DNA of 64,000 nucleotides from a virus (Duplodnaviria > Heunggongvirae > Uroviricota > Caudoviricetes): positions 21,919 through 85,918 of IMG/VR virus record IMGVR_UViG_3300008113_000307, one strand, 5' to 3'. The notes under the pieces are model-generated. The model had not been told where the DNA came from. It ran no database searches and saw only the letters and a list, made by a program, of their open reading frames with translations. Below, piece after piece: positions 6,519 to 39,724 of the stretch (position 1 is its first letter; the number at the start of each line of letters is the position of its first letter). The position numbers and the translations under genes are program-made.

Positions 6519-6521
6519 TAT

Positions 6522-7947: not shown

Positions 7948-7948
7948 T

Positions 7949-8275: not shown

Positions 8276-8281
8276 GTTTTT

Positions 8282-8355: not shown

Positions 8356-8362
8356 TGACAAT

Positions 8363-8439: not shown

Positions 8440-8445
8440 AGATAC

Positions 8446-8537: not shown

Positions 8538-8557
8538 TAAGTACAGCAAAGGAGATC

Positions 8558-8728: not shown

Positions 8729-8737
8729 TTGACACAT

Positions 8738-8812
8738 GCCTGGTTAGCTCAGGGGGAGAGCGCTTCGTTTACACCGAAGATGTCCGCGGTTCGAAACCGT
8801 GACCAGGTACCA
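8738..8812 (+). tRNA. tRNA-Val(TAC)
   Basis: Acceptor gcctggt/accaggt, anticodon stem cttcg/cgaag with loop ttTACac, T-loop ttcgaaa, CCA. Confidence 0.65.
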
Positions 8813-8818
8813 AACATA

Positions 8819-8893
8819 GTCTCTGTAGTTCAATGGATAGAACAAGTTCCTCCTAAGAATTAGATATCAGTTCAATTCTGGTCAGAGACGCCA
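8819..8893 (+). tRNA. tRNA-Arg(CCT)
   Basis: Acceptor gtctctg/cagagac perfect, anticodon stem agttc/gaatt with loop ctCCTaa, T-loop ttcaatt, CCA. Confidence 0.6.
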
Positions 8894-8933
8894 ATCTTGC
8901 GATAGTGGTGGCATCAATAATTTTATTTTTACT

Positions 8934-9782: not shown

Positions 9783-9788
9783 AAAAAT

Positions 9789-9873
9789 GCGGATGTGGCG
9801 TAATTGGTAGCCGCACCAGATTTAGGTTCTGGCGTTGAAAGGCGTGGGGGTTCGAGTCCCTTCATCCGCACCA
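9789..9873 (+). tRNA. tRNA-Leu(TAG), type II
   Basis: Acceptor gcggatg/catccgc perfect, anticodon stem ccaga/tctgg with loop ttTAGgt (reads CUA), long variable arm, CCA. Confidence 0.65.
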
Positions 9874-9921
9874 AGACTCTCCCTGACACACGGAGTATAA
9901 TAGGACAAGTAGTGTGTTTCC

Positions 9922-9995
9922 AGGTCATTAGCTCAAAGGTAGAGCGGTGCATTGACATTGCACATACAGCGGATCGTTACCGTTATGACCTACCA
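9922..9995 (+). tRNA. tRNA-Val(GAC), T-loop ATCGTTA
   Basis: Acceptor aggtcat/atgacct perfect, D-arm gctc-aaaggta-gagc, anticodon stem gtgca/tgcac with loop ttGACat, CCA. Confidence 0.55.
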
Positions 9996-10003
9996 AACAT
10001 CAT

Positions 10004-10080
10004 GCCTTTGTAGCCGAATTGGTATAGGCACTGCGTTGAGGTCGCAGGTTCTGCTGGTTCGAGTCCAGTCAAAGGCACCA
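10004..10080 (+). tRNA. tRNA with Leu anticodon GAG but short (type I) variable arm
   Basis: Acceptor gcctttg/caaaggc perfect, anticodon stem ctgcg/cgcag with loop ttGAGgt, 5-nt variable region, T-loop ttcgagt, CCA. Confidence 0.5.
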
Positions 10081-10085
10081 TTTTT

Positions 10086-10157
10086 AGCGTCACTCTGGCT
10101 GATCTAACTGGGGTCCAATCCCGGTAGTCAAAGGTTCGATTCCTGCAGGCGCTGCCA
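10086..10157 (+). tRNA. Short tRNA-like element with Trp anticodon CCA and reduced D-arm
   Basis: Acceptor 6/7, anticodon stem ctggg/cccgg with loop gtCCAat, T-loop ttcgatt, CCA; only 69 nt before CCA. Confidence 0.35.
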
Positions 10158-10335
10158 TTTTTGCAAACACAAAACCGTGCAGGGGCAATCCCCCGGCTGG
10201 CCCTGTGCAGTGATGCATAACCAGCGGATCAGGTGTCGGGGTGAGAGGCCCCGGGTCGTTTCTGGTGGAAACAGCATCTAGTAACGATGCTGACGACAGC
10301 AGTGCCCTGCACGAAACCAGGTGTTTGCGTTTTTA

Positions 10336-10364
10336 TCGACCAAAAATCAAGAACACAGTATAAT
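10336..10364 (+). promoter_or_regulatory. sigma70-like promoter
   Basis: TCGACC-17-TATAAT, ATG 7 nt downstream at 10371. Confidence 0.5.
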
Positions 10365-10370
10365 AGAAAC

Positions 10371-10601
10371 ATGTATAAATTAATAAACAAAGCAGGCACA
10401 GAACTAGATGGATTTGAGACCTTGGACTCTGCTATGCAAGCCGCAAAGGCAGTGGGCTTCTTTGTGACCATTGCAGGACCGGACTTTGAAGTGTGTGGTC
10501 GGTTTGGAGTAGACACTGTTCGAAACGGGCTGTGCCCAGATGGTGTTAAATACGATTGGAACAAAGCTAGTCGCATTGGCGCAACTAAACGAAAAAGATA
10601 A
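10371..10601 (+). CDS. Hypothetical small protein (76 aa)
   Basis: First ATG after promoter; ends 2 nt before next gene. Confidence 0.5.
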
Positions 10602-10603
10602 AA

Positions 10604-11008
10604 ATGCTGGATAGATTGTTTACAGGTCTTGAAGATATACAAACAAAAACTTGCGGAATGTGTTTGAAAACTCTACCGCTAACTATGTTCGGTAACGACG
10701 GCGGCGCAAAATATCTTAGATATGAGTGCAAGACATGTGCAAAAGCTCAAAGCAAATTGTTAAAAACAATTAAAAAATCTGCACCAGCAATTCCTAAAGA
10801 TTACAAGTGTCCAATTTGCAAGCGTAATGAGCAAGAAGCTAAAGGACATAATCCCAACAAAAAAGGAATTTGGTGTGCCGACCACAATCATGCATCGGGT
10901 AAATTTAGAGGTTGGCTATGTCACAAATGCAATTTAGGATTAGGCAATATGAACGATGACATAGATAGATTAGAAGCTGCTATCAAATATTTAAAGGAGA
11001 AACCATGA
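10604..11008 (+). CDS. Recombination endonuclease VII family protein
   Basis: Cys clusters plus [25 protein letters not shown]...LEAAIKYL match the T4 endo VII signature. Confidence 0.75.
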
Positions 11009-11676
11009 AACGTGTGATTGAAATTCGTGCTGCCGAAGGCGGCGAAGACTCTAAGTTGTTTGTGCAAGATCTTGCACAGGCCTACATCAAGTTTGCTCAC
11101 AGCAAAGGCTGAGCTGCCCGCCTGACAAATCAGATGGCCGGCGAGCAGCATGTGTTGGTCGAAGGCGGTGATTTATCAGGCTTGACGAACGAAGCAGGAG
11201 GGCATCGTATTCAACGAGTGCCGCCTACCGAACGCAAAGGCCGTGTGCATACCAGCACAGTGACAGTGGCCATAGTTGACCCCCGAACCATTGCTACCAC
11301 CATTCGAGAGAGTGATCTCTATGTAGAGTGGTATTCAGGTACAGGTGCTGGAGGGCAGTATCGCAACAAGCATCAAAACTCATGTAGAATCACACATGTG
11401 CCCACCGGCATCACTGCCAAGTCTGAGTGCCGAAGCCGAGCCAACAGTTTGGCTGAAGCTACCCAGGCCATACAGCAACGAGTTGACCACGTGCTACAAA
11501 GTCGCTATAATAGTGCAGTGGCACAGGATCGACGTTCACAAGTGGGCACTGGCCAGCGAGGAGACAAAATACGCACCTATAGATTTCAAGACGATGTCAC
11601 ACAAGACCATGTGACTGGACAACGTGCCAGCACACGACGAGTGTTACAGGGAAACTTTGATCTCTTGTGGAACTGA
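11005..11676 (+). CDS. Truncated class I release factor (RF1-like, domains 2-4) interrupted by an in-frame TGA at 11110-11112
   Basis: ATGA overlap with upstream gene; [34 protein letters not shown] aligns with RF1 VRAGTGGDEAALFAGDL..ARRW; downstream [12 protein letters not shown] (PxT motif), SGTGAGGQ and [13 protein letters not shown] match RF1 domains 3-4. Confidence 0.8.
11113..11149 (+). promoter_or_regulatory. Stable hairpin directly 3' of the in-frame TGA (candidate recoding/readthrough stimulator)
   Basis: gctgcccgcc pairs with ggcgagcagc (9 of 10 bp) around a 17-nt loop, starting at the first nucleotide after the stop codon. Confidence 0.55.
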
Positions 11677-11810
11677 TGCGTAAATAGAAACAGGTGGCGT
11701 CCAGCCTGGACCTCTACTGCACTGGTCTGCAGACATGTCAAACTAGAACGGGTGAGTTGAGGAGCCGCAGGTGCCAAAGGCCTGCACTGGATTCGGTAAC
11801 CAGTATTTTT

Positions 11811-11888
11811 GCCCCTGTGGACAAATTGGCAAAGTCGCTTCTCTCAAAAGGAAGAGTGTTCTCAGTTCGACTCTGAGCAGGGGTACCA
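11811..11888 (+). tRNA. Solitary type-I tRNA with anticodon CAA (Leu UUG codon), A73 discriminator
   Basis: Acceptor gcccctg/caggggt, D-stem gac/gtc with 11-nt loop, anticodon stem cttct/ggaag with loop ctCAAaa, T-loop ttcgact, CCA; sits 130 nt after the release-factor gene. Confidence 0.55.
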
Positions 11889-21131: not shown

Positions 21132-21425
21132 ATGAAATACTCAAGTCTAGCGGCGTTCCTATTCTGCCTAGCCCACAGCGTAGCCAACGCCCAACCAGTG
21201 AAAATTGACAAACCAGTGGTGTGCGACAAAACCGCCACAGTGTTTGCGGCATTGGAAGAAAAATTCCAGGAAATGCCGGTCTGGGGAGGCAACAACTCTC
21301 GAAGCAACGCAAACTATGCGCTGATGTTGAACCCCGAAACCAAAACCTGGACACTGGTGCAGTTCAACACTGAGACTGCCTGTATCTTGGGCATAGGCAA
21401 CAACTATGTGACACAAAAACTGTGA
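21132..21425 (+). CDS. Secreted hypothetical protein (signal peptide)
   Basis: RBS aaggag; MKYSSLAAFLFCLAHSVANA cleavable signal. Confidence 0.55.
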   Translation: MKYSSLAAFLFCLAHSVANAQPVKIDKPVVCDKTATVFAALEEKFQEMPVWGGNNSRSNANYALMLNPETKTWTLVQFNTETACILGIGNNYVTQKL

Positions 21426-21515
21426 TTGACAGGTTGTGATATTTTCAGTACAATATCAATTGTCACCCTAAACTTATTGGTATTAAAATAAATCTATTCT
21501 GAAGAGAATCACCGT

Positions 21516-21740
21516 ATGAAAGCAACCTCAGCCACTGGAGTCACTGGATTCGTCCTGCACACTATTGACGGGTACGTGTTCCGGGTGTATGAAAAAGACA
21601 CCGAAGCCTTCCGGGACTATGACTTGCACCACTGGGATCTGGAAGTCAGAATCGTGGACGAGGACGCTGTGTTCTACGAACTGGACAACGGTAAGAAACT
21701 GTTGGACTACAGCCCTGCAACCCTGGGAATTGACCAATAA
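21516..21740 (+). CDS. Hypothetical protein (74 aa)
   Basis: ORF ending just before cassette copy 3. Confidence 0.45.
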   Translation: MKATSATGVTGFVLHTIDGYVFRVYEKDTEAFRDYDLHHWDLEVRIVDEDAVFYELDNGKKLLDYSPATLGIDQ

Positions 21741-21783
21741 TCCCCGTTGTGCTATAATACAGCATAGGTTAACAAAACAGGAG
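21730..21783 (+). promoter_or_regulatory. Promoter-leader cassette copy 3
   Basis: TTGACC-17-TGTGCTATAAT then cagcataggttaacaaaacaGGAG, ATG 21790. Confidence 0.65.
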
Positions 21784-21789
21784 TTCAAC

Positions 21790-22062
21790 ATGAACGTGCA
21801 AGAAATCAACCGTGCTATCGTCTCCGGCCATCTTACCAATGCTGATCTCAACAGTGTGATTGACGCTGTGAAGTTTGCTCGTGCTCGGCTTACACGACAA
21901 AACAAGGCCAGTCTCATGCTGGGCGATACGGTGCAGTTTACCAGCACACGAACTGGCCGAACCATGCAGGGCACAGTTCGAAAGATTGCCATCAAGTTTG
22001 TCACAGTCAACACCCCCACAGGCCTGTGGAAAGTTCCAGCCAGCATGCTGACTGCAGTTTAA
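21790..22062 (+). CDS. Hypothetical protein (90 aa)
   Basis: Start at cassette ATG. Confidence 0.5.
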   Translation: MNVQEINRAIVSGHLTNADLNSVIDAVKFARARLTRQNKASLMLGDTVQFTSTRTGRTMQGTVRKIAIKFVTVNTPTGLWKVPASMLTAV

Positions 22063-22088
22063 TTTCAACAATCACCAGGGAGATTTCT

Positions 22089-22259
22089 ATGAGCCGCACC
22101 AAAGATTATTTTACCATGTACGAAGATCCCACCTATGATGATGACGGCACCTGCCAGGATCTGGAGCCTGCAGAGACGGCCAGTACAGACACAGGCAGTG
22201 TGGCATTTGCTCAAATGATTGAGCAGTTGACTAGAAAACCTGAGCTAGAATTTGACTGA
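22089..22259 (+). CDS. Hypothetical acidic small protein (56 aa)
   Basis: RBS agggag 7 nt upstream. Confidence 0.4.
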   Translation: MSRTKDYFTMYEDPTYDDDGTCQDLEPAETASTDTGSVAFAQMIEQLTRKPELEFD

Positions 22260-22403
22260 GATAAATAATCTTGCAACGCCAAATTCATCGACGTCGGAAA
22301 TAAATTGACGCCTGGAGTGTATCTCCTTTACTAGATATCAAATATCTACAACGCCAACCGTAAGCACTTGACGGTGCCAGCACTATTAATATAAAATGTT
22401 AAT

Positions 22404-23453
22404 ATGGCATCAATTTATTTTCGTGATCAAAACAACAACATCTATCTCACACGATATCAAGCTGAATCTTCTGCCGCAGGCAATTTAGAGTTTGTGTGTG
22501 GTCATTATAATTTTGCAGCTCATCGCGATGCATCAATTGAAACTGCAGTTGATTACCGAACAAAAGAAATTGCAGACACCTATCAATACACCCAGTTATT
22601 CTACAGTGGCGGCAGCGATTCGCACACCATATTAAAATCCTTTGTAAAAAATAATATACCGTTGTCTGAAATAGTGCTCAGCAGATGGAGTACCGACAAC
22701 AATTTTTTGCAAGAACAAAACAAAGAAATAAATCAAATTGCTGTTCCGCTACTGAACAGATATCAAGATTATCTTGACCGATTTCAGGTCAAAATTACGT
22801 TTTGTGATTTTGGGCTAGACCAAATTGCCAAGGTCTATCATCCTGATCAACTGGCAATACTGCACGGCAATGGAATTTACAATCCTTGCACGTTCAACGT
22901 GATAAATTTTGCGTATCCTCAATTGAGGGATCATCACAACATGTGTCAAATTGTTGGCTGGGAAAAACCATTGATGCAATACAAAAACAAGAAGTTTTAT
23001 ACTTTTATGTTTGACAAAGCCTTGCCGTTTCTAACAGAAAATCCTGAAGTTTTTGCCAGGCAAGAAAATTTCTACTTTGGTGGTGATGGATTTCTAACAG
23101 TAAATCAATTTAGACGAGCAACTGAGCTAATAGACACCAGGCAGTGTACACAAAATCAGCTGTTTACCAACTCCGATAAAGATTTTTTCAACAGTGTGAT
23201 TTCCAACCTTAGGGACGCAGATGAGTGTGGCCTAAGCAATACTGAACACATAGGAAAATCTTTTACTGTTGATGTCCCTGAAAAAGAAAAAATATTTTTT
23301 TCCAATCTAAAAAAGCATCCGGGTGTGTGGAATTCAATTACTACCTATTGCCAATCTGAAAAATTTTCTGACATTACTAATCGGTGTTCTTATCTTTCCA
23401 ACAACAAGCTGACCATTGATACGCTGGTGGCAACTCAGCAGGAGATCACATGA
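22404..23453 (+). CDS. PP-loop superfamily ATP pyrophosphatase (SGGxDS motif), AT-rich
   Basis: QLFYSGGSDSHTIL; 349 aa; low GC; promoter-like TTGACG/TATAAA upstream. Confidence 0.45.
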   Translation: MASIYFRDQNNNIYLTRYQAESSAAGNLEFVCGHYNFAAHRDASIETAVDYRTKEIADTYQYTQLFYSGGSDSHTILKSFVKNNIPLSEIVLSRWSTDNNFLQEQNKEINQIAVPLLNRYQDYLDRFQVKITFCDFGLDQIAKVYHPDQLAILHGNGIYNPCTFNVINFAYPQLRDHHNMCQIVGWEKPLMQYKNKKFYTFMFDKALPFLTENPEVFARQENFYFGGDGFLTVNQFRRATELIDTRQCTQNQLFTNSDKDFFNSVISNLRDADECGLSNTEHIGKSFTVDVPEKEKIFFSNLKKHPGVWNSITTYCQSEKFSDITNRCSYLSNNKLTIDTLVATQQEIT

Positions 23454-24703
23454 TTGAAGCCACTGTGATGGGAATATTTGCTGGCTTGATCAGCGGTCTA
23501 GTTCCAGCAGCCGGACTATTGACTGCCTTGATCATGATGTTGCCACTGTTGACATACCTGTCGGCCAGCGAGCTGTTGTTGTTTTATATGGTGCTAGGCA
23601 CGGTCACACAGTATATCACAGCCATTCCTTCGATACTGATCTCTATTCCTGGGCATCCTTCTAGCATGCACACTGTGATAGAATCCAGCAAACTACTGCC
23701 TGAGCAAAAAAAACAAGTGCTTGGCACTGCATCTCTCCACAGTTTTTTTGCAGTTATGGGTACGTTTTTGATTTTGGTGCTGGCGTCAAGTGCAATTGAT
23801 CAACACATTTCTGTGCTGTTTAGATCCGAAATAATTTTTTTGTTGTTGTTGTTGACGCTGGCGCTGACCACTGCATTTAGCAAAAACAACATGATTGTTT
23901 CTACAGTGCTACTGGGCGTGGGAATCGCACTGTCGTTTGTTGGATACAATTTCTTTTTTGATACCGATTTCACATTTGGGCTAACTTTTATTGCGGCCGG
24001 ACTTGATCCAGTGATTGTTGTGCTGTTGTTTTTGTGTTTTCCTGAATTGTTTAAAAAATTTCATCCACCCAGTCTCGATCAAGCCCGACCTGTGCCAACA
24101 AGATCCAACTCGAATGACCTAGCAAATTCGTCAACTGCAGCCAGTGTGGGATTCTTGGGAGGCCTGGTACCTGGGCTGACCACCATTGCCAGTTCATCAT
24201 TTTACTACTACCTGGGCCGACTGTTTAAACTGCAGCCTCGGCAGCTAGTGGTAGGAACAGAAACTGCAAATGCAGTGGGTTCCATAAGTCAGGTTCTGCC
24301 AGTGTTGTATTTTGGAATCCCAATTCTGGCCAGCGAAGCATTGTTGCTGGCGTTGATGCAGAGTCGAGGATTTTCAATCTCTTTGTTCGATCTTTCGGCA
24401 TTCTTTAGTTCGAGCGTTGGTTATTTTATTCTGGCCAACTTGGTTGCCCTGGCAGTGTGTCTGTTTGCTGCCAAAACTAAGTTTGTTCTGAATTTGTCAC
24501 TACTCAACAAGATTGCCACAGTCTTGCTGATAGTGTCACTGGTCTTCTATGTACTGTTTAACGGTAATGTTGATATCAAACTTATGCAATTACTAATGTT
24601 GTTGCCGTTTGCATTACTGTTCGGCAAACTAGATACTACCCCAGTTGTTGTGGGGTTTTTGATTTCGCCGATGTTTTTTGAATCGGCGTCTAGAATTTTT
24701 TAA
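23450..24703 (+). CDS. Polytopic membrane protein, TctA-like (tripartite tricarboxylate transporter permease family)
   Basis: More than 10 hydrophobic helices; N-terminal GLISGLVPAAGLLTALIMMLPL...VLGTVTQYITAIPSILISIPGHPSS resembles the TctA/DUF112 signature. Confidence 0.45.
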   Translation: MIEATVMGIFAGLISGLVPAAGLLTALIMMLPLLTYLSASELLLFYMVLGTVTQYITAIPSILISIPGHPSSMHTVIESSKLLPEQKKQVLGTASLHSFFAVMGTFLILVLASSAIDQHISVLFRSEIIFLLLLLTLALTTAFSKNNMIVSTVLLGVGIALSFVGYNFFFDTDFTFGLTFIAAGLDPVIVVLLFLCFPELFKKFHPPSLDQARPVPTRSNSNDLANSSTAASVGFLGGLVPGLTTIASSSFYYYLGRLFKLQPRQLVVGTETANAVGSISQVLPVLYFGIPILASEALLLALMQSRGFSISLFDLSAFFSSSVGYFILANLVALAVCLFAAKTKFVLNLSLLNKIATVLLIVSLVFYVLFNGNVDIKLMQLLMLLPFALLFGKLDTTPVVVGFLISPMFFESASRIF

Positions 24704-24714
24704 AAGGAAAAAGT

Positions 24715-25566
24715 ATGAAAATTATTTCAACATGTTTAGCATTAATAATGTGGGCCTCGGCTGTGAATGCAAAAGAATTACACATTGTTTCAGCGGGATC
24801 GAAAACTGGATCTCTTACTATGCAGGCCACTGCCTATGCTAGTGATTTGGCCAACACTTACCAACTGCAGTTGTCAGCACCGGGAAATTTTTGTCAGGCG
24901 CTGACTCAGGTCAACTCTACTACGCCAACCATGTTTTTATGGGCCCACGACTTTGAAGCGGCTGTGCAATCAGGTCAGTGCCCAGTTAAACTGCCTGCAA
25001 ACATGCAACCTATTAGATTCATCAAATCTTCAAGTTTGATATGTTCATTGACCAACGCTGATTCGATCTTTAAAGGCAACGCAAAAATTGCACATACGGT
25101 GCCCAAAAAAATGTTTTCAACAGTTATTTCAAACATAAACACAGCGTTTGGCACTGCACATCAAGGAGTCATGTTCAACGGAAGTGGGCAAGTACGTCTA
25201 GCCTTGCTCAACGGTGAAGTTGATTTGGCAATCTTAACAAACGAACATGCCGATGTAATCAGAAGCAAGGGAGGCTCGTGTAAATTTGTGCTAGACGACC
25301 AAAGCAACATGCCCGGAGTAGTTCCGTTACAACAGTTTAGTCAATCAGTCAAACTACGACATTCATTTAATACCATGGTCTACGCTGTCAACATGTCCAA
25401 AGCCCAGGCAGCTGAGTTGAAACGCAACATGCAACAAGCTCACAAAAATTGCAATAGTGCAATTGGTCAGTACACCAGGTGCGATTCCTTGTTGGATCTA
25501 TCATGGGAAATTGACCAGAAAATACTGTCAAGATGGCAGGAGGATGTGGCTGATTTGATTGAATAA
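24715..25566 (+). CDS. Periplasmic substrate-binding-like protein (signal peptide)
   Basis: MKIISTCLALIMWASAVNA signal; 283 aa; adjacent to TctA-like permease. Confidence 0.4.
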   Translation: MKIISTCLALIMWASAVNAKELHIVSAGSKTGSLTMQATAYASDLANTYQLQLSAPGNFCQALTQVNSTTPTMFLWAHDFEAAVQSGQCPVKLPANMQPIRFIKSSSLICSLTNADSIFKGNAKIAHTVPKKMFSTVISNINTAFGTAHQGVMFNGSGQVRLALLNGEVDLAILTNEHADVIRSKGGSCKFVLDDQSNMPGVVPLQQFSQSVKLRHSFNTMVYAVNMSKAQAAELKRNMQQAHKNCNSAIGQYTRCDSLLDLSWEIDQKILSRWQEDVADLIE

Positions 25567-25582
25567 ACGCATCGCTCTAAAT

Positions 25583-25636
25583 TTGACCAATATTCACCCT
25601 TGTGCTATAATACAGCATAGGTTAACAAAACAGGAG
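25583..25636 (+). promoter_or_regulatory. Promoter-leader cassette copy 4
   Basis: TTGACC-17-TGTGCTATAAT then cagcataggttaacaaaacaGGAG, ATG 25642. Confidence 0.65.
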
Positions 25637-25641
25637 CAGGC

Positions 25642-25854
25642 ATGACAACCACTTACACTGTGCAAGAACTGGCCCAACGGTATGCCGAGGCCCTGGTAGA
25701 ATTCCACGAGCTGGATCAGCATGTGCGAGCAGCCGGTGACAGCCCCTTGCGTCAAGATGTGTCAGCACGCCGTACAGCTCGCGACGCCATATATGATGCC
25801 CAGCAGGCCCTGGATGAGGCTTGCCAGCGTCAAGCACAGATGAACCATGCGTGA
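25642..25854 (+). CDS. Hypothetical protein (70 aa)
   Basis: Cassette-driven ORF. Confidence 0.5.
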   Translation: MTTTYTVQELAQRYAEALVEFHELDQHVRAAGDSPLRQDVSARRTARDAIYDAQQALDEACQRQAQMNHA

Positions 25855-25923
25855 TTTGACACAAATTTGCAGAAGTCGTACAATACAGTTTGTCAGCTAA
25901 ATTCAACCACCGAAAGGAAACCC

Positions 25924-27006
25924 ATGTCAGATAGTCGTACCGTAACCTCCGCCCAAGCTCGCAACAGTCTGTTGACAGCTTTCCGTGTCAAACGTCCGCT
26001 GTTCCTGTGGGGCCCTCCTGGCATTGGCAAAAGCGAACTGGTTGAAGGCATCACCCAGGAACTGAACGGTCTCATGATTGACTTGCGATTGGGCCAGATG
26101 GAACCCACTGACATTCGTGGCATTCCGTTCTACAACAAAGAAGTTGGCAAGATGGATTGGGCTCCCCCAATCGAACTGCCCGACGCCGAAACTGCCAAGC
26201 AATACCCTATTGTGGTGTTGTTTTTGGACGAGTTGAACTCAGCCGCTCCTAGTGTGCAAAGTGCCGCGTACCAGTTGATCTTGAACCGTCGCATTGGCAA
26301 ATATGTGTTGCCTGACAACGTGGTCATGGTGGCTGCTGGCAACCGCGAAAGCGACAAAGGTGTCACATACCGCATGCCAACTCCGCTGGCCAACCGTTTC
26401 ATTCACCAGGAAATGAAGGTGGACTTTGCCAGCTGGCAAGAGTGGGCTGTGAACAACCGTGTGCACAAGGACGTGGTTGGTTACTTGAGTTTTGCCAAGC
26501 AAGACCTGTATGACTTCGACGCCAAGAGTGCCAGCCGTGCCTTTGCTACTCCACGCTCTTGGAGCTTTGTGAGCCAGCTGTTAGATGACCGTGTGGATGA
26601 CGAAACTCTGACCAACTTGGTTGCAGGTACTGTGGGCGAAGGCCTTGCTGTGAAGTTCATGGCACACCGCAAGATTGCCAGCCGCATGCCCAACCCTGCA
26701 GACATCTTGGCAGGCAAGGTCACCACCTTGGATGTGAAAGAAGTTTCGGCCATGTACAGCTTGGTGATCTCCATGTGCTACGAACTCAAGGCTGCTGTTG
26801 AGACCAAAGTGGAAGACAAAAAGTTCCACGAAATGGCCGACAACTTCCTGGGCTACATGATGAAGAACTTTGAAACTGAGTTGACTGTGATGGGTGCACG
26901 TATTGCGTTGACCACGTACAACTTGCCCTTCTTGCCAACCAAGATGAAGAACTTCGACGAGTTCCACCAGCGTTTTGGCAAATACATCCTGCAGGCTTCG
27001 GCCTGA
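25924..27006 (+). CDS. MoxR-like AAA+ ATPase
   Basis: RBS aaaggaaa; Walker A LWGPPGIGKS, Walker B VLFLDELNSA. Confidence 0.8.
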   Translation: MSDSRTVTSAQARNSLLTAFRVKRPLFLWGPPGIGKSELVEGITQELNGLMIDLRLGQMEPTDIRGIPFYNKEVGKMDWAPPIELPDAETAKQYPIVVLFLDELNSAAPSVQSAAYQLILNRRIGKYVLPDNVVMVAAGNRESDKGVTYRMPTPLANRFIHQEMKVDFASWQEWAVNNRVHKDVVGYLSFAKQDLYDFDAKSASRAFATPRSWSFVSQLLDDRVDDETLTNLVAGTVGEGLAVKFMAHRKIASRMPNPADILAGKVTTLDVKEVSAMYSLVISMCYELKAAVETKVEDKKFHEMADNFLGYMMKNFETELTVMGARIALTTYNLPFLPTKMKNFDEFHQRFGKYILQASA

Positions 27007-27840: not shown

Positions 27841-28902
27841 ATGTCTTGGTATTTTTCTAGTGTTCTTGAGAACAAATCAGATTTTTTTGAATTCTTTGAA
27901 TTTAATCAATATTCAATGCACCTAGTCGAACTTTGGGATCCATCGGTACATGTTGGCGGCGCTCATAAAATTCCCTGCAGCTTGATGGGATCAAGCAACA
28001 CAAAGTTAGTAATTGATGCAAGTGAATTTATCAGTTTATTTGAATTTGATACTGATTCTCTAACGACATTTCTTCAAACCAATCGGGTCGTAATATATCA
28101 AAATATTGATTGCTTTGTCGAATTGACAAAGCGTCTGCGCATTGCGTTTGAAAATATTGACTCTAATATACCTAAAAATTGTTTACATGTTATTTTTGAC
28201 GCGGTTCCGTCAACTGAATTTTATTTTTATTCGTTTAAAAATATCAATTTTACAGTGTTAACGCACAATCACTTTTTTAAACTTCCTAGGATACACAAAG
28301 CCAGCCTAGAAAAAAACAAAACCAGCAAAGATTTTCTGCTAACAACTATAAAAAAATCTAGTCGACCACACAGAGAACTATTGTGGAAACAATTGCAAGC
28401 GTATCCAGAATTAACGGTTAATTCAACAATTCTTTATAAAACTCGGCAAAAAAAATGGATAGGTCATCAGACCCATCAACATCAATGGTCAGACGGCCAT
28501 CCAAGCATGGATCTATATCGAAACAACTACGTTGAATTGGTGCCTGAGACTCTTTACAAGCACGGATATTTTTTTACTGAAAAAACAATGAAACCCATTG
28601 CTACCAAGACGCCGTTTTTGATTGTTTCAACTTGTCACTATCTTAAATTTTTAAAACAACAAGGATTTAAAACTTTTGACAACTTGATTGACGAATCATA
28701 TGATTCGTTTCCTCAAATTGAAGACCGAATTAGATCCCTTGTGCAAACAATGCACGACATATCGAAAAATGGTGCAGGCGATTTCTATCAGCAAGCCCAA
28801 GACACGCTGAACTATAATCATCAGCGACTGTTGGAAATATCTGGAGGTTGGCGATATTATCGTGATTTAGACTACCAAAGAATTATTGATAGTATGTGTT
28901 AG
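27841..28902 (+). CDS. Glycosyltransferase-like protein, TEK-motif paralog (AT-rich copy)
   Basis: C-terminal block FFTEKTMKPIATKTPFLIVS...GFKTFDNLIDESYD shared with 39723, 40807 and 50681; motif resembles GT10 fucosyltransferase TEKxW...VPVV. Confidence 0.4.
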   Translation: MSWYFSSVLENKSDFFEFFEFNQYSMHLVELWDPSVHVGGAHKIPCSLMGSSNTKLVIDASEFISLFEFDTDSLTTFLQTNRVVIYQNIDCFVELTKRLRIAFENIDSNIPKNCLHVIFDAVPSTEFYFYSFKNINFTVLTHNHFFKLPRIHKASLEKNKTSKDFLLTTIKKSSRPHRELLWKQLQAYPELTVNSTILYKTRQKKWIGHQTHQHQWSDGHPSMDLYRNNYVELVPETLYKHGYFFTEKTMKPIATKTPFLIVSTCHYLKFLKQQGFKTFDNLIDESYDSFPQIEDRIRSLVQTMHDISKNGAGDFYQQAQDTLNYNHQRLLEISGGWRYYRDLDYQRIIDSMC

Positions 28903-29250: not shown

Positions 29251-30471
29251 ATGACCGCTTCCACTACCATTAACCGAAAGCAATCTGATCAGTTCAAGGA
29301 TATCCTGGGTGCCACAGATCCCAAGCTGGACCGAGAAGTTCGCGAAAAACTGATCACTGCTCGAGTGGGCCTCCTGCTCCGTGCCAGTTTCTTTGGCAAC
29401 TTGGCCACCCGTCTCAAGCTGGTCAATGCTGACACCTGGTGCCCTACTGCTGCCACTGACGGCCGTAACTTTTATTACAACAGCCGTTTCATCAACATGC
29501 TCCGTGCTAAGGAGATTGAGTTCTTGTTTGGCCACGAAGTCCTGCACTGTGTGTATGACCACTTTGGTCGCCGTGGTGATCGTGACCCGCAACTGTGGAA
29601 CATTGCCAACGATTTCTGTGTGAACCAGGACTTGAAGGAACACAATGTTGGCGAGTTCATTACCACAGTGCCTTGCCTGTATGACAAAAAGTACAAGGGC
29701 ATGAGTTCGGAAGAAATCTATGACCAGCTGTACGAAAACGCAGAAAAAGTCGACATCGGCAAACTGATCCAGCAACTGTTGGACGAGCACTTGGACGGCG
29801 ACGGCGACCAAGACGGCGATGGTGACGGTGACAAGGACGGCAAAGGTGATGGGAAAGGCAAGGGTCGTCCCCGACTGAGCGAAGCCGACAAGCAGGCCAT
29901 CCGTGACGAAATCAAAGAAGCTGTGTTGGCAGCGGCCGCTGCCAGCGACGGTGCCGGCAACTTGCCCGCAGGTGTCCGACGCCTGATCCAGGACTTGACT
30001 GAGCCCAAGATGAACTGGCGTGAACTGCTCCGCATGCAGTTGGAATCCACCATCAAGAGCGACTACACCTGGATGCGAGCCAGCCGCAAAGGTTGGCACA
30101 TGGATGCAGTCATGCCCGGCATGAAACTGGATCCCATGATTGATATTGCTGTGGCAATCGACACTTCGGGTTCGATTGGTGCCGACATGCTCAAAGACTT
30201 CCTGAGTGAAATCCAGGGCATCATGGACTCGTTCCCAGCATATCGCATCCATGTGTTCTGCTTTGACACCGAAGTCCACAATCCTGCTCAATACAACAGT
30301 GACAACTTGGACCAGATCACTGACTACGAGCCTGGCGGTGGTGGCGGTACTGACTTCACTGCCATCTATGACTACTTGAAGGCGGAAGAAATCGAGCCCA
30401 AGCGACTGGTTGTGTTCACTGACGGCTACCCATTTGGTTCGTGGGGCGATGAAAACTACACTGACAAATGA
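29251..30471 (+). CDS. Metallopeptidase-like (HExxH) plus VWA-domain protein, likely MoxR partner
   Basis: FGHEVLHCVYDH zinc-binding motif, poly-acidic DGDGDQDGDGDGDKDGKGDG linker, MIDAS motif AIDTSGSIG. Confidence 0.7.
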   Translation: MTASTTINRKQSDQFKDILGATDPKLDREVREKLITARVGLLLRASFFGNLATRLKLVNADTWCPTAATDGRNFYYNSRFINMLRAKEIEFLFGHEVLHCVYDHFGRRGDRDPQLWNIANDFCVNQDLKEHNVGEFITTVPCLYDKKYKGMSSEEIYDQLYENAEKVDIGKLIQQLLDEHLDGDGDQDGDGDGDKDGKGDGKGKGRPRLSEADKQAIRDEIKEAVLAAAAASDGAGNLPAGVRRLIQDLTEPKMNWRELLRMQLESTIKSDYTWMRASRKGWHMDAVMPGMKLDPMIDIAVAIDTSGSIGADMLKDFLSEIQGIMDSFPAYRIHVFCFDTEVHNPAQYNSDNLDQITDYEPGGGGGTDFTAIYDYLKAEEIEPKRLVVFTDGYPFGSWGDENYTDK

Positions 30472-35022: not shown

Positions 35023-35346
35023 ATGGCAAACACACCGTATTTTGACACACCCACGCACTGGCAACCTGAACTTACAAAAATTGTAGACGGGCGCCCAGTG
35101 CGTTTTTCTGACGTGTGTGTGCATGAATTTCGTATAGGCGACGTAGAAGATCCTGCGATTGTTGCAGGTGGTCCCATGTGGGATTGGCAGCAGAGCGAGG
35201 TAGGACAATGGGTGATTGAACATGCAGTGGAAAAACCTTACTGGCACAAGGATCTTGATCCCAGCACCTACGGCTATCGCTTTCGCATAATGGCTCGACT
35301 CAGTGAGCAGGATCAAACTTTTTTTAAACTCAAGTGGAGAAAATAA
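35023..35346 (+). CDS. Hypothetical protein (107 aa)
   Basis: Trp-rich ORF upstream of sugar-modification genes. Confidence 0.45.
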   Translation: MANTPYFDTPTHWQPELTKIVDGRPVRFSDVCVHEFRIGDVEDPAIVAGGPMWDWQQSEVGQWVIEHAVEKPYWHKDLDPSTYGYRFRIMARLSEQDQTFFKLKWRK

Positions 35347-36317
35347 TGGCAAAGTTTTTGGTAACAGGCGGACATGGCCTAATTGGACACAATGTGGTAC
35401 AACGACTGCAGACTCGTGGCGATAGTGTGGCAGTGATGGACACACATACCACATACGGTATCATTCCTCAAGAGGAAATTGATTACTTGGTTGCCGAGCG
35501 GCTCAAAAAGCTAGAGCCCCATGTGTTCTACTGTGATGACATTGTGGATGCTGCTGCTGTGGAATACATCGTGAACAAGGAAAAGCCTCAAGTGTTGATC
35601 CACATGGCCAGCTTTCCTAGACAAAAAGTTGTCAATGCCAATCCTGCTACGGGTGCAGATGTTATGATGAAGGGGTTGATCAATCTTTTGGAGAGTGCCA
35701 AAAAACACGGTGTTGAACGTTTTGTGTACATCTCCAGCAGTATGGTATATGGAGACTTTGAGGATCAGGTACTAGAGGACGACGACTGTGCTCCGCAAGG
35801 ACAATACGGCATAATGAAACTGGCCGGCGAGTGGCTGGTCAAAGATTATGCACGCCGTACAGGTATGGAGTATGTGATTATCCGTCCCAGTGCTGTGTAT
35901 GGACCCTTGGATGTGGAAGATCGTGTGGTGGCCAAGTTCATGATTGCTGCCATGCGTGGAGAAACCCTCCGAGTCAACGGTGCAGGAGAGACCCTGGACT
36001 TTACCTATGTGGATGATGCTGCAGATGGTATTGTGGCGTCGGCCACTCGTATCATGAGCCGCAACAGCACCTACAACATCACCAAGAGTCACAGTGTGAG
36101 CTTGTTGGAAGCTGCAGAAATGATTGTAGAGATCGTGGGCTCAGGCAAGATTGAGGTTTGCGACAAAGACGCAGACTTTCCCAGCCGCGGTGCACTCAAC
36201 ATTGATCGTGCCCGAACCATTCTAGGTTATGATCCCAAGGTGGATGTTCACGAAGGATTTGAAAAGTATTATGAGTGGATCAATAATTCCCTTTACTGGA
36301 ATCCAAAGACAGTATAA
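35346..36317 (+). CDS. NAD-dependent nucleotide-sugar epimerase/dehydratase (SDR family)
   Basis: N-terminal Rossmann motif VTGGHGLIGHNV; about 320 aa. Confidence 0.8.
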   Translation: MAKFLVTGGHGLIGHNVVQRLQTRGDSVAVMDTHTTYGIIPQEEIDYLVAERLKKLEPHVFYCDDIVDAAAVEYIVNKEKPQVLIHMASFPRQKVVNANPATGADVMMKGLINLLESAKKHGVERFVYISSSMVYGDFEDQVLEDDDCAPQGQYGIMKLAGEWLVKDYARRTGMEYVIIRPSAVYGPLDVEDRVVAKFMIAAMRGETLRVNGAGETLDFTYVDDAADGIVASATRIMSRNSTYNITKSHSVSLLEAAEMIVEIVGSGKIEVCDKDADFPSRGALNIDRARTILGYDPKVDVHEGFEKYYEWINNSLYWNPKTV

Positions 36318-37344
36318 CAATCTCCGCGAGGAGATACTGGAAATCACAGACCGTGCACTCAGCACCGGTCAGTTGATGAGCGGCGGATGGACCAATCACT
36401 TTGAGGACTGGCTGGCCTATCGCAATCATGTGCAATATGCAGTGACTTGTCATTCGGGCACACAAGCACTGGAAATCATCGCAGGGTACTATCGAGAACA
36501 ACGTGCAGATCATCCCTCAGTGCTGATTCCAGCCATGACCTACATTGCCACAGCCAATGCTTGGGCCAATGCAGGCTGGCGATTGCACATTGTGGATACT
36601 GATGCTTACGGGCTCATGAATCCTGCAAGTGTGCCCGCATCCCTAGAATTTCAAGCTGTGTGCAATGTAGGGCTGTATGGTGCTGCTGCCACTCAGTGGG
36701 ACGAGCATCACAAACAGTATGTCTTGATTGAGGATGGGGCACAGCATTGGCTGGCAGACAACAGCCAACGTCGTGGTGCTGCTTGTGCCATCAGCTTTGA
36801 TCCCACCAAGAACTTGGCCAACTATGGCAACGGTGGTGCTGTTGTTACCAATCGCATGGATCTGGCCAACTATGCTAGAGACTGGTGCACCAACGGACGT
36901 GACGGATACGGTGCTGAACATGTGACCAACAGCCGCATGAGCGAAGTTGATTGTGCGCAAATGATGATCAAGACCAAGTATATTGATCAATGGCAGCAAC
37001 GTCGCAGAGAGATTGCTGAATACTGGATTGATCAGTTCCAAGATTCCCCTGTCCGTTGCTTGATTGATTCAAGCAATGTTGGACGACACTGTTTTCACAA
37101 GTTTGTGATTGATGTGGATCGACGTGATCAAATGCAGGTACGACTAGCTAATGCCGGTATCAGTACCAAAGTGCATTACACAAGACCCCTGCACGAAGAA
37201 CCCAGGTATATCAACACTCTGGGGCCCAACATGTTGAGTGTGGCCAGTAGCCTGGCCCGCCGTTGTCTAAGTTTGCCTATCTATCCTGAACTAACAGATA
37301 GCGAAGTAGAGCATGTGGCTAGTCAGGTACTAGCCCACGTTTGA
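36271..37344 (+). CDS. DegT/DnrJ/EryC1/StrS-family PLP-dependent sugar aminotransferase
   Basis: N-terminal IPF..QY..L..EI motif and family-typical length; overlaps epimerase stop in another frame. Confidence 0.75.
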   Translation: MSGSIIPFTGIQRQYNNLREEILEITDRALSTGQLMSGGWTNHFEDWLAYRNHVQYAVTCHSGTQALEIIAGYYREQRADHPSVLIPAMTYIATANAWANAGWRLHIVDTDAYGLMNPASVPASLEFQAVCNVGLYGAAATQWDEHHKQYVLIEDGAQHWLADNSQRRGAACAISFDPTKNLANYGNGGAVVTNRMDLANYARDWCTNGRDGYGAEHVTNSRMSEVDCAQMMIKTKYIDQWQQRRREIAEYWIDQFQDSPVRCLIDSSNVGRHCFHKFVIDVDRRDQMQVRLANAGISTKVHYTRPLHEEPRYINTLGPNMLSVASSLARRCLSLPIYPELTDSEVEHVASQVLAHV

Positions 37345-39724
37345 CAAACACATAACTGGCCAGCCACGCCCAGTCATAACTCTTGCGTAGTTGTTCAAAG
37401 TCTCCATTTACTGAATCATAGTATTCTACTGCATCCTCGGCACCCAGCACACTCCATTGCCCGTGTTCCACTATGCCATTGGTATCAGGGTCCAACCATT
37501 GTTTGAGTCTGTATTGACTTTCTACATCTGTGCTGGCACACAATTTGAGCACTTCACGGAAAGCAGTGCGCCAGGCCATCCAGGGAGTATAACTGTAGTA
37601 GGCTGTACCTGACATCATGGGCACAACTTCATGTGCACTGTCCAAGGTAAAGTCTAGTCCGTGTCCTGAATTGGCCAATACCAAGTCCCGGTTGTAGGCA
37701 ATCATGGCTTGGTGCCCATACTCTAATCCATTCACAGGATTACGTGCATGAAAGATATAGTGCTTGGGTTCTTGCATACGATCAGGTTGCCAGTACCAAT
37801 CAAACTCAGGATTCACTGCCAATTTAGCAAACACTGCAAAAAACCAAGGAGTCGTGCTGGCACGGGCTGCTGCATGATATGCTGCCACACGACCATTAAT
37901 GCCATCGACTCGATGCAATTGGTTCGGCCGATAATCCACAGCGCGGCTAACCATACCCCAGTTTGTTTCTGCGTTGGGTTCTCCGTTGCTGATGAACACA
38001 ATGTCTAGAGGTCGGTCGCTGTGTGGTTTTCGTCGAGTTTTGTCAATGTAGGCATAATCATACAACTGTGTGCGAACATGCCCCTGTGCTGTTTTGGGCA
38101 CAATCACTGCACTGGCACCGGTACTGAGCGGCACAATAGTCTTGGTTTCTTGCCGCCACAAGCTCACTGTGGGTAACTCAGCAGGCACATGTTCAACTGT
38201 AAACACGGCCAATGGCCCTGCCCAGTCAGTACGTTTTACAACATCTACGTGTGTATCGTCCTTGTGATATATCACAGGCATGCTACGGCGAGGAACTGAG
38301 ATGCTGGGCACATAGTTAACATCATACCAATCCAGCAGGGCCTTTTTCTCTGCTGACTCGGCAAATGTAGGCACATGCATAAAAAATGTGTCCCCAAACT
38401 TTTGTTCGTTGCTGGCAAACACATGCAGCATTGTGCTCTGCCATGCTTCGGGGTGCCAAGAGAAATCAAATCCTGTGTAGTCGCAGATGCTGCTACACAC
38501 CCATACGTATTCATGTTCCGTGCCAATACTTTTAGCCAAACGTATCAGTGTATCTCGATAGTTGTCAAAGTAGCGCACACGCCGTGTGGTGTTTTTAATT
38601 TTGCCAGCATGTTCATCCAGGTGATCAATTTCATAAATGGCTGTGGCCACACGGGTGGTACGACTTTTGATTTCACTCAGGTACTTGACTTCAGTGGCTC
38701 CGGGTACTGTGTATACTGGCCCGCCTGTCTTCTGGTGTTGCGTAGCAAACTGATAGATGTAGGCAGGTGCACCTGGATCTGGTTGCCAAGAGAAATCAAA
38801 GTCACTGACATCTAGTGTGTCTGGCACAGTCCAATGTTCCAGCGACGGAGTCAACTGAACACGCGGCCAAGTCACATACTTGCGTTCGGTTGCGCCCGGC
38901 ACGCGATATTCTACGGTGGGCATTTTTTCTGCAGGCCACCATTGATTACCAAACACATAGATGTAAGGTGGATCTCCGGGATCTGGCACCCACGAGTAGT
39001 CCCAGTCACAATCAGGTATCACATCGTACCAGAGCCGATTGGGGTTCTTGGGCAGCGTAGCACAGGGAGTGTTCATGTACTTGCGTTCGGTAGCGCCTGG
39101 CACATGATATTCCACAGTGGGCATGACAGTGGCCGAATGCCACTGATTGCCAAACACATAGATGTAGGGCGGATCCATGGGATGTGGACGCCAGGACCAG
39201 TCAAAGCTATCAACATTGACACAGGTTTGCCAGTTGGCAGTGCTGGGCTCTAGCTGTGCTCGCGGTTGTGAAACGTATTTTGGGTCCACTGCGCTTGGCA
39301 CACGATATTCTGGGCCGCCTTGATCATGATAGTTGGTGCCAAACACATACACATAGTCAGGCTCGGTGGGATCTGGATGCCAACTGTAGTCAAACTCAGA
39401 CACCAGGTCACAGTTGTACCAGTGTTCACTGCTGGGCAGTCGCTGTATTACTGGGTCAGCATGATAGTTGGTGTCAGTATAGCCCTCACGGGGCACCAGG
39501 TATGTGCCCGAATCTTTCTGCCACTGACTGGCCCAAGCATGTCGTTGGCCAGCTTGCCACGGTACTGGCTCCCAAAGCCAATCCCAGCCACTGTAGTCCG
39601 ATAAGTAGTTGACCACCCAAAAATAGCGTGTGCGGCAACGGTGGGCAGCATCTTGAATATCCACAGCTGGTTGTTCGTGCACAAACAAGTTTGGCTTTTT
39701 GCCTAGATAAAATACATCAAACAT
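37319..39724 (-). CDS. Large tandem-repeat protein with C-terminal domain homologous to 53195-54154 (putative glycan-modifying enzyme)
   Basis: Six copies of an about 40-aa repeat FD[FW]SWxPDPxxPxYIYVFGN...VPGATE[RV]KY; C-terminal IVFISNGEPNAETNWGMVSRAVD...RVDGINGRVAAYHAAARAS aligns with the N-terminus of the 319-aa protein. Confidence 0.6.
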   Translation of the reverse strand: MFDVFYLGKKPNLFVHEQPAVDIQDAAHRCRTRYFWVVNYLSDYSGWDWLWEPVPWQAGQRHAWASQWQKDSGTYLVPREGYTDTNYHADPVIQRLPSSEHWYNCDLVSEFDYSWHPDPTEPDYVYVFGTNYHDQGGPEYRVPSAVDPKYVSQPRAQLEPSTANWQTCVNVDSFDWSWRPHPMDPPYIYVFGNQWHSATVMPTVEYHVPGATERKYMNTPCATLPKNPNRLWYDVIPDCDWDYSWVPDPGDPPYIYVFGNQWWPAEKMPTVEYRVPGATERKYVTWPRVQLTPSLEHWTVPDTLDVSDFDFSWQPDPGAPAYIYQFATQHQKTGGPVYTVPGATEVKYLSEIKSRTTRVATAIYEIDHLDEHAGKIKNTTRRVRYFDNYRDTLIRLAKSIGTEHEYVWVCSSICDYTGFDFSWHPEAWQSTMLHVFASNEQKFGDTFFMHVPTFAESAEKKALLDWYDVNYVPSISVPRRSMPVIYHKDDTHVDVVKRTDWAGPLAVFTVEHVPAELPTVSLWRQETKTIVPLSTGASAVIVPKTAQGHVRTQLYDYAYIDKTRRKPHSDRPLDIVFISNGEPNAETNWGMVSRAVDYRPNQLHRVDGINGRVAAYHAAARASTTPWFFAVFAKLAVNPEFDWYWQPDRMQEPKHYIFHARNPVNGLEYGHQAMIAYNRDLVLANSGHGLDFTLDSAHEVVPMMSGTAYYSYTPWMAWRTAFREVLKLCASTDVESQYRLKQWLDPDTNGIVEHGQWSVLGAEDAVEYYDSVNGDFEQLRKSYDWAWLASYVFVKRGLVPD
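38875..39175. repeat. Two about 100-nt near-identical direct DNA repeats inside the repeat-protein gene
   Basis: acttgcgttcggt(t/a)gcgcc(c/t)ggcac..gatatt..cacatagatgta(a/g)gg(t/c)ggatc appears twice about 200 nt apart. Confidence 0.6.

Follow-up and report, generated by a model that had tools for sequence, protein, structure and literature searches.

We analyzed a 64,000-nucleotide stretch of viral DNA, referred to as the window (IMG/VR record IMGVR_UViG_3300008113_000307, positions 21,919 to 85,918 of that record), which derives from a jumbo phage of the Caudoviricetes. Three of its genes, named here g1, g2 and g3, are predicted to encode a PP-loop enzyme followed by two components of a tripartite tricarboxylate transporter (TTT). 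A preliminary description made from the DNA letters had proposed three open reading frames (ORFs) at this locus, and we found the same-strand genes exactly where it had put them. They are listed below with the promoter-like sites that flank them.

22404-23453, plus strand: g1, 349 amino acids, on the same strand as g2 and g3
23450-24703, plus strand: g2, 417 amino acids
24715-25566, plus strand: g3, 283 amino acids
22368-22397, plus strand: sigma70-like promoter candidate, TTGACG-18-TAAAAT (consensus scan, 10/12)
25583-25611, plus strand: next sigma70-like promoter candidate (11/12, extended -10 TG), taken as the downstream limit of the three-gene unit

A compact three-gene operon

The stop codon of g1 and the start codon of g2 are joined in an ATGA overlap, which suggests translational coupling, and g3 begins 11 nt after g2, preceded by AGGA. 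The upstream promoter candidate, a consensus match only, ends 7 nt before the start codon of g1. Since the three ORFs overlap or nearly abut and promoter-like sites lie on both flanks, g1-g3 can be read as one tight operon, predicted to be expressed as a single unit. A scan of positions 21400-26000 matched no Rfam family, and the structure of the g1 leader is not out of the ordinary (z-score -1.64).

The locus had also been described as a sharply AT-rich island, which holds only in part. The GC content is 0.376 in g1, 0.439 in g2 and 0.430 in g3, as compared to a mean of 0.463 (standard deviation 0.053) for all genes of at least 100 amino acids in the window, corresponding to z-scores of about -1.6, -0.45 and -0.6, respectively. 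The first gene is therefore moderately AT-rich, but g2 and g3 lie near the window mean. The dip relative to the downstream flank is real, as g1-g3 are 8-14 points lower than the GC content of about 0.52 found there; upstream genes range from 0.47 to 0.51. The same dip is present in a relative of the locus (L001, 88-91% identical), with values of 0.38, 0.42 and 0.43 versus 0.51-0.52 downstream and 0.476 upstream. The ORFs at 6790, 8934 and 27841, for which low GC had been reported as well, are true compositional outliers (0.323, 0.317 and 0.348, respectively), and the ORF at 2240 is a further one (0.335).

Two subunits of a TTT-type transporter

The product of g2 matches the Pfam TctA family (PF01970) along profile positions 4-422 of 423 (E 1.3e-33; 116.7 bits, with a cut-off of 28.9) and has about 10-12 hydrophobic segments, as expected from the earlier account of a TctA-like protein with at least 10 transmembrane (TM) helices. 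TctA proteins carry a duplicated G-Hy3-G-Hy3-G-Hy2-P-G-Hy-G motif in TM1 and TM7 (PMC5812351). Both copies are detectable in g2, GIFAGLISGLVPAAG at residue 8 and AASVGFLGGLVPGLT at residue 230, with 1-2 substitutions each. The best cellular TctA matches are only about 22-27% identical to g2 and 493-685 amino acids long. The product of g2 is a full-length TctA-family permease, namely the large membrane subunit of a TTT.

The third gene starts with the Sec-type signal peptide that had been noticed before (MKIISTCLALIMWASAVNA, with KE following the predicted cleavage site). By sequence, g3 has no family match in Pfam (including PF03401), NCBIfam, PHROGs or among PDB sequences. Its AlphaFold2 (AF2) model, built from 28 homologs, reaches a pLDDT of 88.7, and the top 17 Foldseek matches in the PDB are all TctC/Bug solute-binding proteins (SBPs; E down to 1e-10, TM-score about 0.6). 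These matches include MatC (1e-10), Bpro_3516 TctC, Bug27, BugD/E, TphC/TBP and AdpC, and the top matches in BFVD are phage proteins labeled 'Bug/TTT'. Profile-profile comparison with hhalign aligned g3 with a viral cluster whose representative lies above the PF03401 threshold (probability 96.7%, E 4.7e-10), and the same comparison gave no match between g3 and DctP. By fold and profile, g3 is a secreted, divergent SBP of the TctC/Bug type. The TctA identity of g2 and the TctC-like fold and profile of g3 together indicate that the two genes encode two subunits of one TTT-type transporter.

No small multi-TM ORF that could correspond to TctB, the third subunit, lies near the operon, and the only one in the window (43155-43367, minus strand) is 18 kb away. 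TctB is poorly conserved, its function is not known and it does not occur in archaeal TctA systems (PMC5812351, PMC5898192), so that in this phage it may be supplied by the host or be dispensable.

g1 belongs to a large PP-loop family

The SGGSDS motif by which g1 had been recognized as a PP-loop protein spans residues 68-73. In the alignment of g1 homologs S68, G69, G70, D72 and S73 are invariant, and SGGxDS occurs in 131 of 148 representatives that were retrieved for the family. By motif, g1 is a PP-loop enzyme, a putative ATP pyrophosphatase, and it is predicted to be cytoplasmic, with no TM segment and no signal peptide. The g1 profile matches the N-type ATP pyrophosphatase 3rjz at the PP-loop motif (E 0.08). 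Beyond this motif, which was all that a search of PDB sequences returned, g1 has no match in Pfam, NCBIfam or PHROGs; in NCBIfam, spurious matches aside, there was none at E <= 1 for g1 and none at E <= 0.01 for two central members of the family.

The AF2 model of g1 has a mean pLDDT of 48.9 and a core (residues 60-135) with pLDDT of 66-92. The top Foldseek matches of this core are all PP-loop enzymes, namely LarE, NAD/NMN synthetase, TilS and NcsA. They are weak (E 5e-3 to 2e-2, probability up to 1.0), and the TM-score is only 0.2-0.3 because two thirds of the model are unreliable. By fold, g1 is probably a PP-loop enzyme, of the AANH-like superfamily with a Rossmann-like alpha/beta/alpha nucleotide-binding fold.

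We rejected QueC (7-cyano-7-deazaguanine synthase) and NASAT (N-acetyl sugar amidotransferase) as the identity of g1, and by sequence it is not a NAD synthetase (NadE). The defining feature of QueC is a C-terminal zinc-binding cysteine cluster; g1 shows no conserved cysteine cluster and no match to Pfam QueC, and its only similarity is a 20-residue PP-loop stretch aligned to 3bl5 (E 1.5). NASAT is defined by the tetracysteine zinc motif CXXCXn[GN]XCXXC (PMC10607449), which none of 156 g1-family members contains; g1 is devoid of any CxxC and has no NCBIfam match to NASAT/WbuX. As for NadE, searches of Pfam, NCBIfam and PDB sequences aligned g1 with none of the NAD_synthase models, and the similarity is limited to a weak one in fold.

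The family of g1 (hereafter G1) is large: an exhaustive profile search yielded at least 1,497 representatives of sequence clusters, with E <= 1e-10 for 1,259. This search corrected a word-indexed one, which had found 8 relatives and made the family look falsely tiny. Scanning with family patterns confirmed 106 IMG/VR loci, and G1 is a mostly viral family.

G1 genes are linked to binding proteins

To describe the neighborhood of G1 we relied on 80 loci fetched by g1 patterns alone, 78 of which held a g1-cluster ORF. A TctC, g3-type, DctP or TctA gene is present in 47 of these 78 loci, and each of the 31 loci that hold a Pfam-type TctC has one such gene no more than three genes from G1. After dereplication at 70%, 38 of the 74 G1 lineages have a partner (TctC, DctP or TctA) at most two genes away, which in 33 is directly adjacent. 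The pairs occur in both gene orders, often in tandem or with overlapping ORFs. The association of G1 with a binding protein is too consistent to look like coincidence. A phage permease is missing from the vicinity of most TctC genes linked to G1. All TctC-type and g3-type partners carry a signal peptide; the DctP-type partners adjacent to G1, which belong to the TRAP (tripartite ATP-independent periplasmic) type (L055, L056, L060, L062, L091 and others), apparently do not, with N-termini like MKQPIRLRWVLAHVPYDLF.

Some loci (L070, L073, L092, L098 and L032) hold 2-3 G1-TctC pairs each, sometimes split by a radical-SAM gene. Such tandem repeats look like the outcome of cassette duplication and divergence.

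The trio recurs in divergent viral lineages

In the window, the trio lies next to the following genes, which also flank it in its two closest relatives (L001 and L002):

25867-27006: MoxR-like AAA ATPase
29251-30471: DUF2201 metallopeptidase/VWA protein

The relatives come from independent assemblies (L001 from JGI and L002 from ENA) and share the trio at 88-91% amino acid identity between the same phage flanks. Host DNA or a chimeric assembly was therefore rejected as the source of the locus, the close homologs being all from metagenomic or viral contigs. The three genes are under purifying selection, with ratios of non-synonymous to synonymous substitution rates (dN/dS) against L001 of 0.18 for g1, 0.125 for g2 and 0.03 for g3. 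The 90%-identity cluster of g3 has 17 members, and the lineage recurs across many samples. More distant trios, with 25-36% identity, are found in L003, L004/5, L006-9, L010, L017-20, L023, L037, L085/95 and L097, and overall at least five lineages of viruses, divergent from one another, carry the trio.

The flanking ATPase shares 49% identity with its counterpart in Pseudomonas phage PA5oct, the closest relative among deposited phages, and is kept in PA5oct-like and other jumbo phages. At the syntenic site upstream of it, PA5oct has only small hypothetical genes and no trio, and the module is thus accessory in this lineage. Its horizontal acquisition, which had been suggested earlier, agrees with this accessory nature, but we found no bacterial donor (the best cellular TctA being about 22-27% identical). 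When the locus, the three genes and a central member of G1 were compared with 50,697 phage records at the DNA and protein level, nothing came up; only the flanking ATPase located relatives there.

In several marine loci (L003, L006-L010, L017-L020, L022, L024, L025, L027 and L041), TctA, g3 or G1 genes stand beside 3-7 tandem paralogs of 215-250 amino acids with an HxD...H motif, whose profile weakly matches the ALKBH8 oxygenase domain and cupins. These paralogs may correspond to the pair of 2-oxoglutarate (2OG)-FeII oxygenase and tctA described as auxiliary metabolic genes (AMGs) in SUP05 viruses. The paralog family was not found in the 64-kb window.

Sugar-pathway genes co-occur with G1

Among 185,579 species genomes, only nine loci hold a cellular G1. 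A first scan of these genomes was empty, an alignment of 44 sequences was too diverse for scanning, and a tighter alignment gave the nine loci. Seven belong to metagenome-assembled genomes (MAGs) of Bacteriovoracaceae/Bdellovibrionales (L101-L107, including chromosome OZ244239.1), and the remaining two to other MAGs. In the predatory bacteria, G1 is surrounded by genes for a NAD-dependent epimerase/4,6-dehydratase, a DegT aminotransferase and a protein of family c8, which resembles GT-A glycosyltransferases (GTs), with no binding protein. A further gene of these sugar-nucleotide loci encodes a membrane protein with a spermidine-synthase domain, about 700 amino acids in length.

In viruses, the families that co-occur with G1 are radical-SAM/SPASM, UDP-glucose dehydrogenase, DegT, c8 and c4, in addition to fatty-acid hydroxylases/desaturases and the 2OG-oxygenase-like paralogs. 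We scanned the window with the profiles of these families and found much of the set at 35-54 kb, with matches from 1e-30 to 1e-98. These genes are listed here, followed by a c4 paralog located elsewhere in the window:

35334-36317, plus strand: NAD-dependent epimerase/4,6-dehydratase (Pfam Epimerase 2.9e-43, GDP_Man_Dehyd 2.6e-35)
36229-37344, plus strand: DegT-family aminotransferase (DegT cluster profile 1e-54)
37319-39724 and 53195-54154, minus strand: c8, GT-A-like with a DxD-type motif (c8 profile)
39723-40829 (plus), 40807-41988 (plus) and 50681-51832 (minus): c4 genes (c4 profile)
43009-44493, minus strand: carbamoyltransferase (Pfam Carbam_trans 2e-47)
45618-53201, minus strand: five radical-SAM/SPASM paralogs, the fifth set apart by a c4 gene (Pfam SPASM/Radical_SAM)
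27841-28902, plus strand: fourth c4 paralog, formerly labeled 'GT-like' (c4 profile E 6.8e-30; GC 0.348)

The genes at 35-54 kb, which start with the dehydratase and DegT pair, make up some 20 kb of clustered sugar or secondary-metabolite genes and, by co-occurrence only, are a candidate downstream pathway of g1-g3. In deposited phages the radical-SAM proteins have only distant relatives, with 20-26% identity (Vibrio phages K566 and nt-1, and Ralstonia phage RsoM2USA). The families c4 and c8 are both unassigned, and neither has sequence relatives in the PDB.

The fourth c4 paralog lies outside this cluster, between the ATPase and DUF2201 genes. The interval between these two genes is 2245 bp in the window as compared to 1170 bp in L001 and L002, where no gene of this size was called, which suggests a recent insertion or duplication at 27841. 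The ORF has no Pfam, PHROG or PDB relative, leaving the 'GT-like' label unproven, and we regard it as a candidate associate of g1-g3.

Phage surroundings of the operon

The upstream part of the window is occupied by 31 tRNA genes (667-11888) interspersed with AT-rich ORFs. The following genes lie within this array:

2240-2740 and 8934-9782: unassigned AT-rich ORFs
5237-5671: PD-(D/E)XK endonuclease
6790-7833: PrmA-like methyltransferase, borderline (22.2 bits, with a cut-off of 22)
10604-11008: endonuclease VII

The two nuclease genes resemble insertions of the mobile or homing type. Closer to the module, at 21132-21425, an ORF of 97 amino acids has a clear signal peptide (MKYSSLAAFLFCLAHSVANA) and would encode a secreted phage protein. 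On the other side, the PHROG label 'HNH endonuclease' returned for 29251-30471 looks like a misannotation. Near-perfect sigma70 consensus sites (11/12, 17-nt spacer) recur in short intergenic gaps at 21426-21454, 21730-21758, 25583-25611 and 25856-25884. Their recurrence suggests that many small units are transcribed early, by the host RNA polymerase.

Comparison with known systems

Like the TTT systems described so far (TC 2.A.80), the phage genes encode a TctA that is full-length and has both copies of the glycine-rich motif and, adjoining it, a protein with the TctC/Bug fold and a signal peptide. They differ in that no TctB was found, g3 is too divergent for Pfam TctC, the order is enzyme-TctA-TctC instead of tctCBA, and g2 has 417 amino acids as opposed to 493-685 in cellular TctA. 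A further difference is that they are encoded by a lytic-type jumbo phage, in one operon with a PP-loop enzyme.

The classic binding-protein AMG of phages is cyanophage PstS, and the likeness consists in a virus supplying parts of a high-affinity uptake system of the host type. For SUP05 viruses, Roux et al. (2014, PMC4164917) reported tctA, next to 2OG oxygenases, as a putative AMG without a known role; the marine relatives identified here show the same pairing of tctA with 2OG-oxygenase-like genes. UniProt and BFVD also contain 'Bug/TTT' proteins from uncultured Caudovirales. These earlier reports of viral tctA and Bug are domain-level annotations, unlike the fixed pairing with a PP-loop enzyme and the joint occurrence of TctA and TctC in one operon seen here. 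In the searchable literature we found no description of a phage operon with TctA and TctC, or of a pairing between a PP-loop enzyme and a binding protein.

Among PP-loop enzymes, G1 resembles NASAT (WbpG, WbuX and PseA-type; 8WEX), a group of SGGxDS enzymes of amino-sugar and lipopolysaccharide pathways. NASAT genes adjoin DegT and dehydratase genes, as do those of the G1 family. Moreover, FtNadE and LarE are among the nearest folds listed for NASAT (PMC10607449) and also among the top matches of g1, so that fold matches to NadE and LarE carry little information on the substrate. G1 differs from NASAT in lacking the tetracysteine motif and in having a different N-terminal extension and C-terminal domain. 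NadE, NMN synthetase and LarE, all of which adenylate a carboxylate, are the best structural matches to the g1 core; unlike them, g1 has a genomic context unrelated to NAD metabolism, and it shows no sequence-level match to any of them.

A model of import and activation

We favor, with a confidence slightly above even, a reading in which a TctB-less TTT importer of the phage is functionally coupled to an adenylating PP-loop enzyme of a new family, to 'import and activate' its substrate. PP-loop enzymes adenylate their substrate, and NAD synthetase, asparagine synthetase, QueC and LarE do so on carboxylates. The characterized TTT substrates that have been tabulated are organic acids (PMC5812351). 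This chemical fit between TTT and PP-loop enzymes, and the linkage of G1 to binding proteins, are the basis of the model. First, g3 would be exported to the host periplasm and capture an organic acid. It would then pass the acid to g2 in the host inner membrane for ion-coupled symport inward, with g2 working either without TctB or with that of the host. In the cytoplasm g1, made from the same transcript, would adenylate the imported compound (ATP to AMP and PPi), most likely on a carboxylate, and an amine or ammonia would finally attack the adenylate to form an amide. The data show the identity of g2 and g3, the PP-loop nature of g1, the operon structure, purifying selection and a conserved link between g1 and binding proteins; the direction of transport, the adenylation of a carboxylate and the acceptor are what we infer in this scheme.

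The modification of a transported substrate, one of the functions first proposed for the locus, is thus the best reading: g2 and g3 belong to one transporter type, and g1 is syntenic with them in at least five viral lineages and linked to SBPs throughout its family. The three proteins did not turn out to have unrelated functions with no shared pathway, the outcome that the preliminary description had named as speaking against such a module.

The downstream use of the product is most likely an unusual amino-sugar or glycan pathway, as suggested by co-occurrence only. G1 genes sit beside dehydratase, DegT and GT-like genes in predatory bacteria, and the same set is present at 35-54 kb of the window. 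A more specific version, which we put forward tentatively and regard as possible though doubtful, is that the G1 family defines a mostly viral system not recognized before, in which the phage supplies a high-affinity binding protein for an organic acid, here along with the permease, and a dedicated PP-loop ligase that joins this exogenous acid to an amino sugar made by the phage, and that the resulting non-canonical glycan decorates virions, phage DNA or the host surface.

Several observations weigh against import and activation as we propose it. In about half of the G1 lineages no binding protein lies within two genes, and the DctP-type partners apparently have no signal peptide, so that the partner may not always act in uptake; a cytoplasmic protein with the SBP fold would be at odds with a simple role in uptake. 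In TRAP systems DctQ, which corresponds to TctB, is essential (PMC5812351) and no TctB was found here, hence a permease made of TctA only may not work. The g1 model is poor outside residues 60-135, and its weak fold matches, with the nearest folds FtNadE and LarE shared with NASAT (PMC10607449), do not discriminate the substrate. The sugar cluster is at least 10 kb from g1-g3 in the window and is tied to them only by co-occurrence elsewhere. Finally, locus dereplication and ORF calling were done with simple methods.

Alternative explanations

The first alternative is nutrient scavenging, in which the transporter would boost the uptake of a central carboxylate (such as citrate, 2-oxoglutarate or malate) as fuel for the infected cell, and g1 would be an unrelated amidotransferase of the housekeeping type that shares the operon by chance. 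Cyanophage PstS is thought to act as a nutrient-scavenging auxiliary gene. Viral tctA, adjoining 2OG-Fe(II) oxygenases, has already been counted among the putative AMGs (PMC4164917), MatC, the top fold match of g3, binds malate, and the oxygenase-like enzymes encoded in 3-7 copies beside TctA and g3 in marine relatives are of a kind that consumes a dicarboxylate. No such paralog, however, is present in the window. In addition, the pairing between G1 and binding proteins is too consistent for an unrelated enzyme (both gene orders, tandem copies, mostly without a permease), and the overlap between g1 and g2 suggests that the two are translationally coupled. We therefore deem scavenging unlikely.

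Even less probable, in our view, is a role in base modification, also among the early proposals for this locus, with g1 acting like TilS, QueC or TtcA and the transporter supplying a precursor such as a 7-deazaguanine intermediate or an amino acid. The 31 tRNA genes of the window, the presence of TilS and NcsA among the fold matches of g1, a PA5oct QueE gene about 6 kb upstream of the syntenic site and a PTPS/QueD-like gene near TctA and g3 in a marine locus (L013) are compatible with it. Positive evidence for tRNA or DNA-base modification is nevertheless lacking at g1, which has neither the zinc/cysteine motifs of QueC and NASAT (0 of 156 family members for the tetracysteine motif, no CxxC in g1) nor a match to a tRNA-enzyme family, and no riboswitch was found. 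The similarity to QueC is confined to the bare PP-loop motif, neither a tRNA-binding nor a TGT partner is seen, and the cellular members of the family sit among sugar genes.

The salvage of NAD+ precursors would have g3 and g2 import nicotinate or quinolinate and a NadE- or NMN-synthetase-like g1 rebuild NAD+, for example against NAD-depleting defenses. The best g1 folds (LarE, NH3-dependent NAD synthetase and NMN synthetase) act on nicotinic-acid nucleotides, and Bug27, one of the top fold matches of g3, binds quinolinate with sub-micromolar affinity, as does Bug69 (PMC11452294). We consider this highly improbable, since g1 has no sequence match to NAD_synthase models and FtNadE and LarE are equally among the nearest folds of NASAT, an enzyme of N-acetyl sugars (PMC10607449). 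Furthermore, no phosphoribosyltransferase or NMNAT is seen next to G1 in about 100 loci, where the recurrent annotated neighbors are largely sugar-nucleotide, oxygenase and radical-SAM enzymes.

A role other than uptake, in which TctA is a membrane effector and the binding protein works as a decoy in the periplasm, as the ligand of a sensor or in superinfection exclusion, would explain why no phage permease accompanies most of the TctC genes linked to G1 and recalls the SBPs that serve signaling receptors besides transporters (PMC8050422, PMC9602780); it is very doubtful, because a complete TctA directly adjoins the binding protein here and in at least five other lineages, orphan TctC genes are normal in bacteria, with many binding proteins for few permeases (PMC5994714, PMC5812351), and the fixed partnership with a cytoplasmic ATP-dependent enzyme suits metabolism better than signaling.

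Implications

The transport components known from phages have so far been mostly single binding proteins or bare domain matches, and the operon described here combines the receptor and the permease of a secondary transporter. It bears on whether TctA can work without TctB, a question left open by the review of TTT systems. With at least about 1,500 clusters, the family of its enzyme is nevertheless missing from Pfam, NCBIfam and PHROGs, and none of the 50,697 deposited phage genomes searched has it. Owing to the pairing between enzyme and binding protein, the ligand of g3 would point to the substrate of the whole g1 family.

If the link to amino sugars is true, phages would draw on extracellular metabolites to build modified glycans. 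Were the acid indeed joined to an amino sugar, the tandem G1-TctC pairs would represent cassettes of differing acid specificity. Apart from two other MAGs, the cellular carriers of G1 that we found are Bdellovibrio-like predators, which hints at an exchange between parasites of two kinds that both exploit Gram-negative cells.

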